41,249 nt of DNA, from positions 1 to 41,249 of the forward strand of contig JBDGSJ010000012.1 in assembly GCA_042217585.1 (NCBI GenBank). Direction: 5' to 3'. The notes below the pieces were generated by a model. That model did no database searches and was not told the DNA's origin. It was given only the letters and a program-made list of their open reading frames with translations. Source of the stretch: Candidatus Nanohaloarchaea archaeon (GTDB lineage Archaea; Nanohalarchaeota; Nanosalinia; Nanosalinales; Nanosalinaceae). The position numbers and the translations under genes were made by a program. Shown in pieces: positions 13,766-19,029 of this stretch. Every line of letters starts with the position of its first letter. The stretch's first letter is position 1.

Positions 13766-13889
13766 ACTCCTTCTAATCGAATGATATACTCATCTTCCTT
13801 TAAAAAAGCTGTCCTGTCTGTTAGGAAGTATCTCCGGGGCCATCCATGATTCAAAAATATGCGGGACCCACGTTAACTGTGGCGTCTGT

Positions 13890-13978
13890 GCCGGGGTGAC
13901 GGAGTCTGGCTGAACGTGCCGGTCTTGAGAACCGGTGGGCCGTACCGGCCCTCCTGGGTTCAAATCCCAGCCCCGGCG
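13890..13978 (+). tRNA. tRNA-Ser(TGA), intronless, CCA not encoded
   Basis: Acceptor GCCGGGG/CCCCGGC with G discriminator; anticodon stem CCGGT/ACCGG and loop CT-TGA-GA; long variable arm GGGCC/GGCCC; T-arm CTGGG-TTCAAAT-CCCAG. Confidence 0.96.
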
Positions 13979-14109
13979 TCCCACATTTCAACCTTGTACA
14001 GGACCTTGTCGCAGTTACGGGTACAGGTCCGGCGTCCCTCGATACCGGGAAAAGTTAGAACTGGCTCTTCTAGACCGGATAAATTTCAGAAGTTAGAATG
14101 GAGGCGTGT

Positions 14110-14418
14110 TTACTCCATGAGTTCTATCTCGATGTCCACTCCTTCAGGTACATGGACCCTCATAACCTGTCTCAGCGCTCTTTCGGACTCGGTGATGTCG
14201 ATGAGTCTCTTGTGGACGCTCATCTCGTACCTCTCTATCGTGGAGCTTCCCTCTCCGTCCGGAGCCTTCCTTGTCGGGATGTCCATCTTCTCCGTCGGGA
14301 GCGGGACAGGTCCGGAGACCTCTGCGTTGTACTCGTCTCCGATGTCAAGTATCTCTTCCGCGAGCTCGTCCACCTTTTCCTGATCGGTGCTCCTGAGCTT
14401 CACTCTTGCCTTCTGCAT
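14110..14418 (-). CDS. rps10: 30S ribosomal protein uS10
   Basis: SGPVPLPT, TRKAPDGEGS, HKRLIDI. Confidence 0.97.
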   Translation of the reverse strand: MQKARVKLRSTDQEKVDELAEEILDIGDEYNAEVSGPVPLPTEKMDIPTRKAPDGEGSSTIERYEMSVHKRLIDITESERALRQVMRVHVPEGVDIEIELME

Positions 14419-14460: not shown

Positions 14461-14916
14461 TTATCGGTCGTATCCCCCTGATTCACTCTGTCCGGGTGTA
14501 TCCGCTGATTCCTGGAGCTTCCGGTATTCGTCGTGCGCCCTTTCAATCTCGGTGGCGTGGTCCCAGTCATCTGCCCGGGTGGCCATCTCCATCGAGTAGC
14601 CCATGCCCAGCCCGGCAATTCCGGCTATCATGTTTCCGGCCAGTGCTGCTCCTGCTCCCGCGGCTCCCAGCGTCAGGGCGCTGACCCTTGTAAGGTTCAT
14701 GTAGGTGAACTCCCGGTCCTGGAACCAGGTTGAGAGGTATCCATCGGGAAGTTCGCTTTTCTTCCTCCGGCCTTCACTGTACATTTCGGCCGTTCCTATC
14801 ATCTTTTGCTCGACTGCTTCCGCTCCATCCTCCAGGAGGTCCCTCAGTTTTTCGCCGCTTTTCCTGATGGTCCTCTCCGTAGCAGTTCCCCGGTCCACGA
14901 TATTTTCATTCTCCAT
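14461..14916 (-). CDS. Hypothetical protein with Gly/Ala-rich hydrophobic hairpin
   Basis: Acidic ORF with LTLGAAGAGAALAGNMIAGIAGLGMG; TTTTAAAA upstream. Confidence 0.6.
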   Translation of the reverse strand: MENENIVDRGTATERTIRKSGEKLRDLLEDGAEAVEQKMIGTAEMYSEGRRKKSELPDGYLSTWFQDREFTYMNLTRVSALTLGAAGAGAALAGNMIAGIAGLGMGYSMEMATRADDWDHATEIERAHDEYRKLQESADTPGQSESGGYDR

Positions 14917-14959
14917 TTGTTACACGATGGGAACAAGTAAGGATCGATTTTTAAAAATC

Positions 14960-15460
14960 TCAGTTTGTGGTTATCGAGAGTCCTGAAGGTGCTGAAGGTG
15001 GAGAGGTCGCTCCCATATCGATGGAGGAGGTCACAGATCCCGAGACCTCCTGGTTGCTCAGTCCTCCTATCTGGTCGTACTCGATGTTGATTGAAAAGCT
15101 GTTACAGCCGAACATACCCGCCTGCCTGAACTGGACGTTCTCTACTGTGAACTCTTCCGAGTCCGCGACAGGTATCATCTTCCCCTCCCACGAAGACGCA
15201 TTCCTGCCGTTCCCGTTCAGTACCTCTATCCGGGTGACGTTGACCGGTTCTCCGGCTCCGTTCCTGAGTATGAACTGGAGGTGTCCATCCGTGTTCACCC
15301 CGAACTGTGCTATCTGGACCGCCTCTCCCCCGAAGCCCATGCTGGATTTCTGGCACTGGCCCTGGCTGAAGGCGAAGAAGGCGGCGCCGACGACGGCCAC
15401 TACCACGAGCATCCATCCGTAAGACATCAGGTACTCTATGGCTGACTGTCCCTTCTTCAT
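14960..15460 (-). CDS. Archaeal type IV pilin-like protein (class III signal peptide) with C-terminal PPSAPSGL tail
   Basis: MKKG|QSAIEYLMSYGW with E at +5, followed by a hydrophobic helix; 4-bp overlap with upstream adhesin. Confidence 0.88.
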   Translation of the reverse strand: MKKGQSAIEYLMSYGWMLVVVAVVGAAFFAFSQGQCQKSSMGFGGEAVQIAQFGVNTDGHLQFILRNGAGEPVNVTRIEVLNGNGRNASSWEGKMIPVADSEEFTVENVQFRQAGMFGCNSFSINIEYDQIGGLSNQEVSGSVTSSIDMGATSPPSAPSGLSITTN

Positions 15461-18400
15461 CTGCTGATCACCCCGCAGTCCTGGACGGATGAACTGCCTG
15501 CTCCGTTGAACGCCGTCACGTTGAAGCAGACGTAGTCGCCGTCCTTTATGTTCAGGGCGTTGTAGCTGAAGGACTTCTCGTTGGGACCTGTGGATCCCAC
15601 CTTCCTGAAGGAGCCTGTCGAATTAGTGTAGACCCTGAACCCGTTCTCGTTGTTCGATCTGTCCTTCCACGAGAGATCTATCACTATGCCGCCGTACTTC
15701 ACCCTGAAGATTTTTTCCGCGGACCTGGTCACGTCTCCGTTGCTCTGAGTGACCGTCAGGAAGCCTCTGAAGGTCTGTGGAAGTTTGCCTGACCTGTAGT
15801 CGTATCTGAGCACTCCGGCAGTCCCGTTCTCGATATCCGTCACCACTTTCCTCGACTTCATCACCTCGCTGTCGTAGTATGTCAGGTTGAACCTGGTCAG
15901 TTTCGGGGACCTGTCGTTGTTTGTTGACATCGAGACCCGGTATTTCAGGAACCTGGTCTGCGGGACGCTGTCTATATCGGAGTGAGAGATCCATGTCCCG
16001 GAGCTGTTCTCTAGGAAGCTGACTGAAAGACCTGTGCCAGCTGGCTCTACAGTCTCGGTCCTTACCTGTCTGGGGTCGAACTTCTGGCTGTCGCTCAGGA
16101 CCGGTGAGGTGTAGGTGCCCGAGTCCTCGTACCTGAGCCTGTAAAACCTGTCCGATGGTATGACCTGGAAGCTTGATTCGCCGGGCCTCTTCCACGCGAC
16201 GGACACACCGCTTCCTCCGGTATGTTCCTGTACCCGGACCCTGAAGGTGTGGTATCCTTTATCGAGCTGTATCGTATCGCTGTGGACGTAACTTCCCGAG
16301 ACACCGTGACCTCCGTACCAGGAGACGGCTCTTTTCCCGTCGATGAATACGTCTGATGCGTCGTCGGAGTCTATTCCTATGGTGTAGGTCCCTGACTCCG
16401 GTGCGTACAGGTAACCGGATGCCTTCCACGAGAAATGGTCTCCCGGCAGGTAAGATGGCTTCGCGTTCCAGCCTCCGCCGCTCTGCCAGTGGACGGAACC
16501 CGAGTGGTTCCCGGTTCCCTGGAGAGAGACACCGCTCCTCGAAGGGTTGAAGAACTTGTCCATGGCGTCCTCGCTGTCCGCGTAGTTGTCCTCCTGGTTC
16601 AGGCCCTGGGTTTCATACCACCGGTAGGCCAGCTTTCCCTGTGCACCCACAGATGACTCGAGTCTCAGGTCCCCTGCCGAGATCTCCGTGCCCGAGAGGG
16701 TCCCTGAGTTCCAGTCATCGCCGTCGCTGAAAGTCCAGTTAAGGACCTTGCCGGTGCTGTTGAAGTGGAGGGCCACGTCGTAGCAACCATACCTGCTGTA
16801 GCATTCAGGTCTGAAGCTGAAGTTCACCGGGTTCCTGGTGGAGTTCCGGTCCGCGGGGCTGGTCCAGTCTATCGTGGGCGAGGGGAAGTCTTTCGGCCTG
16901 ACCGTGATGTTCCGGGCGTAGGACCTGTTTGTCGTGCCATCCTGTTCTGTTACCTTTATCGCCCACCTGAACGTGGACGGGAGGGAGTAGCTTGAGAAAT
17001 CGTAGGTTATGCTGTTGGTCTGGCCGCTGTCTACGTTCGATACGGTCTTCATCTCCCTGAACCTGGTCTGAGTGTTGGCATAAGATAGGTTTACCTTTCT
17101 CACTGTCGGGGTCTTCAGGTTGTCCGATGTCTCGAGATGTGCCCTGAACCTGAGGAACCTGGACGCAGGCACGTCATCGAGCGATTCGTTGTATATCCAT
17201 GTACCTGAGCTGTTATGCCCGAAGTCGATGTCATAACTCGTTGAGGCTCCGGTTGAACCGGTTACCCGGGAGTTCCTCCAGTCCACATCCCTCGCCGCGG
17301 CGAAAGTTCTGGATGTGTAGTTGCCTGAATCAGGGTAGACCCGTGGATAGTATCTTGTCGAAGGTATGACCTGGAAGCTTGATTCGCCGGGCCTTATCCA
17401 GGCGACAGACACGCCATCTCCTCCGGTGTCCTCCTGCATGCGGACCCTGAACCGGTGGAAGCCCTTCGAGAGCGTTATCTGGCCGCTGTGGCCGTAGCTT
17501 CCCGAGGTCCCGTGCGGTCCGTAGTACGATGCGACCCTGTTCCCGTCGATGAATACGTCTGATGCGTCGTCGGAGTCTATTCCTATGGTGTAGGTCCCTG
17601 ACTCCGGTGCGTACAGGTAACCGGATGCCTCCCAGGAGTAATGCTCGGAGGACAGGTAGGATGGTTTTGCGTCCCATGAACTGCTGTGCCAGTGGACCCT
17701 TCCCGAGTGGATTCCCTCGCCACCTCTGCTGACCCCGTTGGTTCCGGGATCTGTGAACATGTCCATCTCCTCCTCATCGTTCGCGTAGCCGTTGACCTGG
17801 TTCAGCTCTGAGGTGTCGTACCAGTGATACCTGAGTCTTCCCTGCTGGCCCGGTACGGATCTGCTCAGGGAGATACCGCCGTTTTCTACGGTCGTGTTCC
17901 GGACCTCGCCTGTGCTCCACTCGTCCCCGGAGTCCGTCACCCAGTGGAAAACGCTGTTGGTGGGCAGGCTGTACTTCACCGAGATGGAACGGACCTCGGG
18001 GGCCTGGTAGACATCACCCGTTGATAGGGTCACGTTGAGCTTTATCCTCTCCGTCTGCGGCACCTCCTCTATGCTCTCGTGGTAGGTCCAGCCGTTCTTC
18101 CCCTTGCTGGCGTAGTCCACATCCACCGACGTACCGGAGGGAGTCAGAGCCTTCACCTCTGCCGATCTCCAGTAGGCCGGGGCCCTTACGGTTTTTGGCT
18201 CTGTCTCATAGCTTCCTGGGCTCTGGAACTCCATGCTGGCGTTCGCGTAGCGATCATCAGGTATAACTTTGAAATCTGATTCCCCAGGTTTCTTCCAGGC
18301 GAGAGAGACTCCGTCCTGCCCTCCTCCCTCCTCCATCCTTACCTTTATCGGGTGCCATCCCCTGGAGAGGGTTATCTGGCCGCTGTGGCCGTAGCCGCCT

Positions 18401-19029
18401 GCCACTGCGTGTCCCCCGTACCACGAGGCGATTTTCTGTCCTTCTACGAATACGTCTGATGCGTCGTCGGAGTCTATTCCTATGGTGTAGGTCCCTGACT
18501 CCGGTGCGTATATGTAGCCCTCGGCTTTCCACGAGTAACCTCCGGAGGGGAGATAGGAGGGTTTCTCGTCCCAACCGGCATCGTACCAGTGTATCCTCCT
18601 CTGGAACATGCCCGTGCCGCCGAACTCCACCCCCGGCTTCGAAGTATTGAAGAACTGGTCGAACTGTTCCTCCGTTTCAGGATGGCCGTTCTCGCTGTAG
18701 TAGGTCCCGGTATCGTACCAGGTATAGTTCAGGTTCTCCTTCGCCCCCGTGCTCTTCAGTGTCAGGTTCCCGGAATCTGTCTTAACGGCGTTACGGTCAC
18801 CTTCTTTCCACGAGCTGGTCTCCCAGGAGAGAGTAAGGTTGCCGGTCGTGTTGAACATCAGGCTGGCCGTACTGCATCCTGAACCACACTCAGGTTTGAA
18901 ACTGAATGTCACAGGGTTCTCTACATCAGCGTCCTCCGCCGGGGGACCTACCTGGACGATAGGGAGAGACAACCCGGAAAACGTCAGCAGAAGTACACAG
19001 AGGGGGAGAAAGATGTTTTTCTTCTCCAT
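15457..19029 (-). CDS. Large secreted adhesin/lectin: three PA14 domains, Ig-like domains and a C-terminal FN3-like domain
   Basis: Sec-type signal peptide; three copies of W.A.GY.YAPESGTYTIGIDSDDASDVF...GH...L.KG.H...VR.(Q/E)E..G..G..(L/V)AW..PG; C-terminal IDLSWKDRSNNENGFRVY...VTAFNGAGSS. Confidence 0.88.
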   Translation of the reverse strand: MEKKNIFLPLCVLLLTFSGLSLPIVQVGPPAEDADVENPVTFSFKPECGSGCSTASLMFNTTGNLTLSWETSSWKEGDRNAVKTDSGNLTLKSTGAKENLNYTWYDTGTYYSENGHPETEEQFDQFFNTSKPGVEFGGTGMFQRRIHWYDAGWDEKPSYLPSGGYSWKAEGYIYAPESGTYTIGIDSDDASDVFVEGQKIASWYGGHAVAGGYGHSGQITLSRGWHPIKVRMEEGGGQDGVSLAWKKPGESDFKVIPDDRYANASMEFQSPGSYETEPKTVRAPAYWRSAEVKALTPSGTSVDVDYASKGKNGWTYHESIEEVPQTERIKLNVTLSTGDVYQAPEVRSISVKYSLPTNSVFHWVTDSGDEWSTGEVRNTTVENGGISLSRSVPGQQGRLRYHWYDTSELNQVNGYANDEEEMDMFTDPGTNGVSRGGEGIHSGRVHWHSSSWDAKPSYLSSEHYSWEASGYLYAPESGTYTIGIDSDDASDVFIDGNRVASYYGPHGTSGSYGHSGQITLSKGFHRFRVRMQEDTGGDGVSVAWIRPGESSFQVIPSTRYYPRVYPDSGNYTSRTFAAARDVDWRNSRVTGSTGASTSYDIDFGHNSSGTWIYNESLDDVPASRFLRFRAHLETSDNLKTPTVRKVNLSYANTQTRFREMKTVSNVDSGQTNSITYDFSSYSLPSTFRWAIKVTEQDGTTNRSYARNITVRPKDFPSPTIDWTSPADRNSTRNPVNFSFRPECYSRYGCYDVALHFNSTGKVLNWTFSDGDDWNSGTLSGTEISAGDLRLESSVGAQGKLAYRWYETQGLNQEDNYADSEDAMDKFFNPSRSGVSLQGTGNHSGSVHWQSGGGWNAKPSYLPGDHFSWKASGYLYAPESGTYTIGIDSDDASDVFIDGKRAVSWYGGHGVSGSYVHSDTIQLDKGYHTFRVRVQEHTGGSGVSVAWKRPGESSFQVIPSDRFYRLRYEDSGTYTSPVLSDSQKFDPRQVRTETVEPAGTGLSVSFLENSSGTWISHSDIDSVPQTRFLKYRVSMSTNNDRSPKLTRFNLTYYDSEVMKSRKVVTDIENGTAGVLRYDYRSGKLPQTFRGFLTVTQSNGDVTRSAEKIFRVKYGGIVIDLSWKDRSNNENGFRVYTNSTGSFRKVGSTGPNEKSFSYNALNIKDGDYVCFNVTAFNGAGSSSVQDCGVISR
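16334..16424. repeat. Intragenic exact repeat in the C-terminal PA14 (91 bp identical to 17540-17630)
   Basis: Direct comparison of TTCCCGTCGATGAATACG...CCGGATGCCT. Confidence 0.9.
17540..17630. repeat. Intragenic exact repeat in the middle PA14
   Basis: Identical to 16334-16424. Confidence 0.9.
18448..18510. repeat. Intragenic exact repeat in the N-terminal PA14 (63-bp core common to all three copies)
   Basis: GAATACGTCTGATGCG...CCGGTGCGTA is identical in all three copies. Confidence 0.9.

Follow-up and report, generated by a model that had tools for sequence, protein, structure and literature searches.

The window analyzed here is a stretch of 41,249 nucleotides from a tiny salt-lake archaeon, a Candidatus Nanohaloarchaea archaeon with a genome size of 980 kb (GenBank assembly GCA_042217585.1, contig JBDGSJ010000012.1, positions 1 to 41,249 of the forward strand). 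On its minus strand, two overlapping genes encode a large secreted adhesin and a type IV pilin-like protein. At its C-terminus the adhesin has a fibronectin type III (FN3) domain that begins at strand B, and a motif resembling the missing strand A stands at the C-terminus of the pilin. The features of the pair were as follows, the nucleotide positions of the third PA14 module being computed from residue numbers.

15457..19029, minus strand: triple-PA14 adhesin, an open reading frame (ORF) of 1190 aa with a signal-like N-terminus, three PA14/GLEYA lectin modules, immunoglobulin (Ig)-like spacers and a C-terminal FN3 domain without strand A (A-less FN3)
16159..16473, minus strand: third PA14 module (aa 853-957), the best-scoring Pfam stretch
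15460..15693, minus strand: C-terminal FN3 domain without strand A (aa 1113-1190), with strands B, C, C', E, F and G and a conserved Cys pair
15457..15460, minus strand: ATGA overlap of adhesin stop and pilin start, four shared bases, translational coupling
14960..15460, minus strand: type IV pilin-like protein of 166 aa, with the class III motif K-G-Q-S-A-I-E-Y-L, a hydrophobic helix, a globular domain and a C-terminal tail
15368..15460, minus strand: pilin N-terminus (about aa 1-31), with the prepilin cleavage motif and the hydrophobic helix
14963..15010, minus strand: pilin tail (last 16 aa), of which the last 12, P-S-A-P-S-G-L-S-I-T-T-N (14963-14998), fit FN3 strand A at columns -20 to -9

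The adhesin gene lies first and the pilin gene downstream, the pilin ATG occupying 15460-15458 and the adhesin stop 15459-15457; the coordinates of both genes and the ATGA coupling given by the first-pass annotation were read unchanged from the ORFs. The layout was identical in the orthologous loci of two other genomes (G040:C68 and G041:C70), whose adhesins have 1193 and 1196 aa, and the -4 overlap recurred in G040:C68, an independent genome. A 4-base overlap was also found at the locus G026:C52, but with the gene order reversed. The junctions in the window were covered without indels by contigs of two DNA runs, and one contig of 1260 bases corresponded to 14927-16186 with 0 differences; these runs are possibly the source sample and do not count as independent confirmation of the junction.

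A triple-PA14 head had been claimed for the adhesin, and Pfam PA14 (PF07691) indeed matched it in three stretches (E 1.6e-42, 145 bits against a cut-off of 24), as did GLEYA (PF10528, E 3.1e-16). The claim of a signal without a C-terminal anchor also agreed with the sequence, in which a hydrophobic signal-like segment was read at the N-terminus and no hydrophobic anchor segment at the C-terminus. Relatives of the adhesin carried the database name 'PA14 domain-containing protein [Candidatus Nanohalobium sp.]', and the source names of the relatives supported a nanohaloarchaeal origin.

The pilin leader consists of a short basic N-terminus, a K-G / Q cleavage motif and a hydrophobic helix, and Q5, E9, Y10, Y14 and W16 were invariant in 27 aligned pilins. 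A C-terminal extension was present in 13 of these 27, and the other pilins stop right after the globular domain. Pfam held no family for the pilin, and the match to NCBIfam UpsA (E 0.03, 14.4 bits) was far below the cut-off of 130. The genome encodes an A24 prepilin peptidase (PF01478, contig C6:20052-20375) over the cut-off, together with four T2SSE ATPase matches (PF00437) over the cut-off on contigs C6, C5, C11 and C25. The pilin family was present in 48 of 70 genomes of the phylum, with 10-15 pilin genes in some of them (G023, G026, G046 and G048), and a paralogue on contig C13 of the same genome had neither a tail nor an adhesin neighbor. In two salt-lake runs, the contig depth was 258-404 at 15411-15457 and 8-17 elsewhere. 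This rise over the pilin N-terminal motif showed that a stretch of 40-50 bases (15408-15457) is common, almost unchanged, to many pilins of the community.

Strand register and fold models

The last 78 residues of the adhesin open with G-G-I-V-I-D-L-S-W-K-D and carry the FN3 core signature, namely Trp in strand B, an aromatic residue in strand C and Tyr/Cys-x-x-V-x-A-x-N in strand F. This tail alone matched the designed FN3con (4u3h) from residue 30 onward (E 0.0068), and a profile of four tails matched contactin-1, FN3con and titin FN3 chains in the PDB (best E 1.3e-5); these sequence matches set in at strand B. A search of the same genome with the adhesin tail found only the tail itself. In a library of 1.84 billion sequences, the four-tail profile found 19263 proteins at E <= 0.001, headed by giant proteins in which this FN3 subtype is repeated in tandem up to 36 times. 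The representative-library search was swamped by such tandem-repeat proteins and was used only for building the canonical register. The Cys in strand F and the Cys after strand G (within 15460-15560 in the window) were at least 90% conserved in 17 aligned A-less FN3 domains, and a disulfide clamp stabilizing the incomplete domain is a plausible reading of this pair. In those giant-protein FN3 repeats that were read, the position of the strand-F Cys was Tyr or Cys.

For the register, 150 giant proteins gave 1342 repeat starts, from which a maximum of four per protein left 584 repeats, and these were aligned without gaps on the invariant strand-B Trp (column 0). The consensus of the 584 repeats was as follows.

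Strand-A side columns: P -20, A -18, P -17, S/T -16, G/N -15, L -14, A -12
Strand-B side columns: S -8, I -4, L -2, W 0, D +2

The last 12 residues of the pilin took up columns -20 to -9, with consensus residues at -20, -18, -17, -16, -15 and -14, and the adhesin domain had G-G at columns -8 and -7, followed by I-V-I-D-L-S-W. On a position-specific scoring matrix of strand A (columns -20 to -10), the pilin tail scored 21.7 bits and ranked first among the C-termini of 4058 stop-to-stop ORFs, the genome being searched down to an ORF length of 100 aa; the next reached 11.5 and the median was -15.5. The residues of the adhesin itself in the strand-A register scored -18.4 bits. The seven strands of an FN3 domain were not found in one chain of the adhesin; the strand-A motif sits on the pilin. 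The adhesin C-terminus is an FN3 domain that begins at strand B and has the six strands B to G, and the pilin tail, judged by its residues, is the strand A missing from it, in exact register; both points had been made by the first-pass annotation. The split of the FN3 domain is real and far beyond chance.

The register recurred in other loci, with the canonical positions of the tail being P at -20, P at -17 and Leu/Ile at -14. These key positions were kept across loci and the other positions varied, and the tails ended at columns -11 to -8, where the acceptor begins. The pilin at G040:C5 (L042:7848-8441, 198 aa) carries three tandem tail-like units, two being 21-residue repeats that open with P-x-P-P-N-G and the last a P-S-S-P-S-G tail. 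This pilin might hold more than one cargo molecule, or the additional units might act as a spacer.

The fold of the adhesin C-terminus was modeled with AlphaFold2. In the model of its last 230 residues, the predicted local distance difference test (pLDDT) was 81-92 at model residues 155-230 and below 50 in the 150 residues upstream, because the search with the last 231 residues gave only two orthologues. Structural alignment to solved FN3 domains (VIA-align) covered 72-81 residues with Z of 8-10 and a root mean square deviation (rmsd) of 2.0-3.1. Of 50 structural matches, 48 started at model residue 150-155, and single-domain FN3 templates were covered only from residue 14-18 (2h45 18-95, 3teu 15-92). 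The best Foldseek match was weak (E 5.1e-4) because of the 150 poorly predicted residues. The homologue at G048:C12 gave a confident model from a 17-row alignment of its last 200 residues (mean pLDDT 87.5, predicted template modeling score 0.70). Residues 27-122 formed a complete seven-strand domain, of which 84-93 residues could be superposed on whole single domains (Z of 10-11). Residues 121-200 aligned to FN3 templates only from strand B, with 71-75 residues aligned, rmsd of 1.5-2.1 and Z of 9.2-9.7. The FN3 part consisted of six strands, and its alignments began after the last strand of the preceding domain.

The complex of an adhesin fragment (138 aa) and the pilin without its helix (133 aa) was predicted with alignments of our own. 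The complex score (ipSAE) was 0.52 (runs 0.53, 0.36 and 0.52) against 0.00 for the best of three controls, which counts as weak support. In the benchmark, 116 of 157 solved complexes passed the mark, as did 2 of 215 mismatched pairs, and a score of 0.60 or below was the level of only 18 of the 157 solved complexes and of both passing mismatches; with alignments of our own, these benchmark counts hold only roughly. The runs agreed in at least 68% of contacts, and the partner pLDDT was at least 68. The score raises the odds of the predicted pairing a little, without placing the pilin.

Linkage of tail pilins and A-less FN3 proteins

A large secreted protein with an A-less FN3 domain was found beside a pilin with a P..P..L tail in 13 loci, nine in the 70 nanohaloarchaeal genomes and four in metagenome contigs, so the split is neither an artefact nor peculiar to this genome. 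The arrangements in the genomes were as follows.

Window, G040:C68, G041:C70 and G040:C5: adhesin then pilin, with an overlap or a gap of at most 11 bases
G026:C51: adhesin then pilin
G026:C52: pilin then adhesin, with a 4-base overlap
G048:C12: protein of 2583 aa, divergent, about 1 kb from the pilin
G053:C1: adhesin and pilin with a 194-aa ORF between them
G026:C66: A-less FN3 call weak

The four-tail profile found 20 places in 15 of the 70 genomes. Thirteen of them lay at most 8 residues from the C-terminus of the ORF, directly after the last strand of the preceding domain and with no P..P motif, and the 12 of these domains that were re-scored gave -19.0 to -1.6 for strand A in their own register. 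Four were internal FN3 domains with a normal P..P..L strand A (scores +4.1 to +15.9), and three were doubtful short matches. The gap between internal and C-terminal scores indicated that the phylum has ordinary internal FN3 domains and a distinct A-less C-terminal form. In the C-terminal set the domain was folded to the end of the chain, with 0-8 residues after it. A hidden Markov model of the 13 A-less domains detected further diverged ones at G026:C51 and G053:C1, and weakly at G026:C66.

Among 64 distinct complete short pilins in the genome-set loci examined, 11 scored at least 5 on the tail matrix. Six of these 11 abut an ORF with an A-less FN3 domain, and in the flanks examined none of the 53 pilins below 5 did so; two of the 11 (L079 and L100) were chance matches within the pilin body, with no extension. 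The pilin at G048:C12 stands outside these counts and scored 13.3. From the metagenomes, 78 loci with a pilin alignment were fetched, which held 65 short pilins, and in all four loci with a C-terminal A-less FN3 ORF this ORF abuts a pilin with a P..P tail. The tails of L117, L120 and L123 scored at least 5, and L124 and the first pilin of L123 were acidic variants missed by the matrix. In G053 and G055, the tail pilin is immediately preceded by a conserved 194-aa protein (L038:8369-8950 and L037:8253-8834), which combines a membrane segment at the N-terminus with an acidic low-complexity stretch and a beta-rich C-terminal part.

A maximum-likelihood tree was built from 72 pilin bodies (first 140 residues), leaving out pilins of more than 230 or less than 130 aa, those with masked residues, and the metagenome loci except six with tails or partners. 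The tail label required 9 changes on this tree, of which at least 5 were forced by well-supported branches. Shuffled labels required 14.7 changes on average, and 0 of 500 shuffles was as low as 9. The tail was thus scattered over the family, and an A-less FN3 neighbor occurred in nearly every tail lineage. The cargo varied, with PA14 in the window, LamG-like at G040:C5, GLUG repeats at G026:C52 and giant multi-domain proteins elsewhere.

Many pilins of the family are themselves modular, with LamG-like, GLUG, PQQ-like, DUF285/BspA-like or unassigned modules at the C-terminus (L008, L010, L011, L017, L024, L028 and P0157-P0161). The LamG-like cargo of G040:C5 aligned over 389 aa, with 30% identity (E 1e-29), to the extension that the modular pilin at G048:C31 carries at its C-terminus. 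In P0157, a metagenomic modular pilin of 634 aa, the pilin part was 60% identical to the tail pilin of G026:C52 (E 2e-61), and the GLUG part matched the adhesin of that same locus (E 7e-33 and 4e-23). Some lineages have the covalent fusion and others the tail with an A-less FN3 domain, and this alternation speaks most strongly for a split domain that serves as the link. A whole FN3 domain right after the pilin domain, which would have pointed to a local rearrangement in the window, was present in none of five long relatives, in a search crowded by chance word matches, and six further long pilins carried other cargo as well. On these comparisons of genes and genomes, it is well supported and likely that the tail and the A-less FN3 domain are functionally connected.

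Around the pair in the window, a 151-aa ORF with a Gly/Ala-rich hydrophobic segment (14461-14916, minus strand) lies between the pilin gene and the ribosomal protein S10 gene (14110-14418). It appears to be an insertion or local gain, because the S10 gene directly follows the pilin gene in G040:C68 and G041:C70. A tRNA-Ser gene (anticodon TGA, 13889-13981, plus strand) stands between the S10 gene region and three ORFs for small membrane proteins. A scan for sigma-70 promoters and intrinsic terminators, which does not cover archaeal promoters, gave nothing above shuffles. The ORFs around the pair suggested no chaperone or usher, and no search aimed at such genes was made.

Proposed docking and its alternatives

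Based on these results, a mechanism is proposed in which the adhesin would be exported through Sec, carrying three PA14 lectin modules and a six-strand FN3 domain whose strand-A slot lacks a canonical strand of its own. The downstream gene of the overlapping pair would yield the pilin, which the class III (prepilin) peptidase would process before its incorporation into a type IV pilus. Outside the cell, its 12-residue tail would lie antiparallel to strand B with the conserved Leu in the FN3 core, which would complete the sandwich and tie the lectin head non-covalently to the pilin. From column -8 onward the domain is formed by the adhesin chain itself, which would be why the tail stops at -9. 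In related genomes, the tail-and-acceptor pair would be reused with other cargo, replacing the covalent fusion of pilin and cargo. Such a two-gene docking pair, made of one FN3 domain split between two proteins and completed in trans, is in our view the probable reading of the register, the fold models and the weak complex score. The analysis shows the anatomy, the register, the conservation, the gene linkage and the fusion relatives; binding, insertion of the strand, display on a pilus and any role in host attachment are inferred, and host capture by a DPANN symbiont is speculation. There is perhaps an even chance that the pair is a portable 'tag and catcher', by which Sec cargo with a six-strand FN3 domain would be clipped, with no enzyme or chaperone, onto pilins with a strand-A tail of 10-13 residues, so that mix-and-match cargo (PA14, LamG-like, GLUG or giant multi-domain proteins) would let a tiny symbiont re-arm one pilus scaffold with exchangeable binding heads. 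In that case it would also be the first example of strand complementation that joins a type IV pilin, as the donor, to a non-pilin protein.

Several observations weigh against this docking. Pfam fn3 (PF00041) gave no match to the whole adhesin at E <= 1 or to its last 87 or 147 aa at E <= 10. The split coverage expected from the first-pass annotation was therefore not seen with this family, and the FN3 similarity came from the other profiles; PF00041 was present in the more distant relatives P0165-P0168 that matched the C-terminal part of the adhesin. The pilin tail is rich in Pro, Ser and Thr, like linkers or glycosylated stretches. Two of the 50 structural alignments (ranks 1 and 27) started at residue 145 and took in the adhesin's own strand I-F-R-V, which lies in a low-confidence region of the model, in or near the strand-A position. 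On steric grounds, a tight hairpin F-R-V-K-Y / G-G / I-V-I-D-L would be plausible, and the slot may be open or covered by the neighboring domain. Tail pilins without a detectable A-less FN3 neighbor were found at G055:C3, whose flanks contain masked stretches, in L121 (a contig of 1.7 kb) and in L141. An adhesin downstream of a tail-less pilin in the pilin-first order could have been missed, because most flanks of tail-less pilins were only 1.5-3.5 kb. In turn, seven A-less FN3 proteins had no pilin in the flank examined; G006 has three of these proteins, and G062, G063, G064 and G038 have one each. Two of the seven lie at contig ends. No significant match to the pilin family was found in G062-G064, with one match at E 0.02 in G062 and none in the others, which suggested that the donor there would be something else, if the A-less domain needs one. 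The weak pilin matches in the five genomes with a partnerless A-less FN3 domain revealed nothing new with a tail. Finally, the complex prediction gave no interface, and a pass of this weak class is more often wrong than right without a good prior. The interpretation of the first-pass annotation was partly supported: its anatomy, the register and the coupling of the genes were right, and the structural prediction of the pair did not add a position for the strand. G062-G064, which belong to one genus, also encode small proteins of 139 to 264 aa, in the part seen, that end in an A-less FN3 domain (L050, L051 and L048).

A first alternative is that the C-terminal domain needs no partner, being a six-strand sandwich clamped by a disulfide or completed by the last strand of the preceding domain, and has another role such as envelope binding or spacing. 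The tail would then be an independent Pro-rich spacer or glycosylation site, and the two genes would be neighbors through shared surface or pilus biology. The two alignments that reach the upstream strand, the conserved Cys pair, which could stabilize the A-less domain, the seven proteins without a pilin neighbor, the lack of a significant pilin match in G062-G064 and the weak complex pass are all in keeping with it. However, it leaves unexplained why the only strand-A-like C-terminus among 4058 ORFs is encoded by the overlapping gene, and why the tails end just where the acceptor begins. Tail and A-less FN3 occurred together in 13 loci that cover five or more pilin lineages, and in the flanks examined no tail-less pilin had such a neighbor. 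The first-pass annotation had named completion by the adhesin's own upstream residues as one of the points on which its reading would fall. In the G048:C12 homologue the upstream domain was complete by itself and the FN3 alignments started after it, and this check, like those on whole FN3 domains in related pilins and on a split confined to one genome, came out in favor of the first-pass annotation. Overall, a domain without a partner is considered unlikely.

A second alternative accepts the functional tie and proposes a different geometry, in which the tail would be added at the sheet edge next to a strand that the adhesin supplies itself, would bind the adhesin at another site, or would be attached covalently through the action of an enzyme. 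The gene linkage and the fusion relatives show a functional tie and leave its geometry free, and the complex prediction gave no interface. The exact canonical register and the end of the tail at the A-B loop, however, fit a vacant strand better than other sites. In addition, no conserved Lys, Asp or Asn was read across the tail alignments, which argues against an isopeptide link. Binding in another geometry is therefore rated as quite improbable. A third alternative takes the pieces as degenerating leftovers, without present function, of an ancestral pilin-FN3 or adhesin-FN3 arrangement, or as a mis-assembly; it is very improbable and already largely refuted. Related pilins fused with cargo do indicate that fission and fusion happen in the family, but orthologues preserve the pattern at 40-45% pilin identity, as do paralogous pairs with other cargo and loci of either gene order, the key tail positions were conserved while others varied, the contigs of two runs covered the junctions without indels, independent genomes shared the -4 overlap, and simple fission of a pilin-FN3 gene would not put strands B-G upstream of the pilin.

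Comparison with known systems

The ways in which type IV pili bear large non-pilin adhesins are just beginning to emerge for bacteria, and for archaea no answer is known; if the docking is real, a split FN3 domain with the pilin as strand donor would solve this problem in a new and simple manner. It would also explain how secreted lectins without an anchor are retained on DPANN cells that depend on host contact; in one paper, type IV pili were proposed as a possible aid to the interaction of a nanohaloarchaeon with its host (PMC11291902). If the docking holds, the A-less FN3 would serve as a recognizable C-terminal sorting domain for annotating the surface proteins of the phylum. The 12-residue peptide and its domain would be a natural, salt-adapted pair and a possible tool for protein coupling, and the pairing would be directly testable with a peptide and an 80-residue domain.

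The tip adhesins FimH and PapG of chaperone-usher pili combine a lectin head with an Ig-like domain that lacks one strand, which is supplied by the next pilus subunit, FimG or PapF. In those pili the acceptor is short of its C-terminal strand G, an N-terminal extension of the donor fills the gap, and the system requires a periplasmic chaperone and an outer-membrane usher. The proposed pair resembles them in having a two-part adhesin to which a pilus subunit would supply a strand, and differs in that the N-terminal strand A of an FN3 domain is missing and the donor would be the C-terminal tail of an archaeal type IV pilin; no homology is implied.

A functional parallel in bacterial type IV pili is offered by the PilC/PilY adhesins, whose last 10 residues are reported to insert into a minor-pilin complex with PilX by beta-strand augmentation, a finding that started from multimer modeling (PMC13711793). 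Like that system, the proposed pair would tie a large non-pilin adhesin to type IV pilins by one short terminal strand added to a beta-sheet of the partner. The polarity is reversed, since here the last 12 residues of the pilin would enter the adhesin, and the acceptor is a truncated FN3 domain instead of a pilin sheet; the proteins are unrelated. Insertion of the adhesin's own C-terminal tail, as in PilC/PilY, does not apply to the window, where the free tail is on the pilin and the adhesin ends in a folded FN3 domain. PilB of Streptococcus sanguinis, a modular type IV pilin with a grafted module, and the modular pilins of the present family also arm a pilus with lectin or adhesion modules. 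Differently, the module in the window is a separate protein exported through Sec, and the split FN3 would take the place of the covalent link.

Strand donation between archaeal surface proteins is established in threads, cannulae, bundling pili and Tat-fimbriae, as covered by the available parts of those reports. These are homopolymers of non-type-IV subunits, and in the same parts no type IV pilin that donates a strand to an adhesin is described. The donor-strand pilus of bacteria of the Candidate Phyla Radiation (PMC13278184) was considered as a precedent and set aside, being a different system. In the literature covered, which did not extend to subscription journals, no description was found of a type IV pilin that donates a strand to an FN3 domain or an adhesin. 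The split-FN3 pair belongs to neither the chaperone-usher nor the PilC/PilY family.

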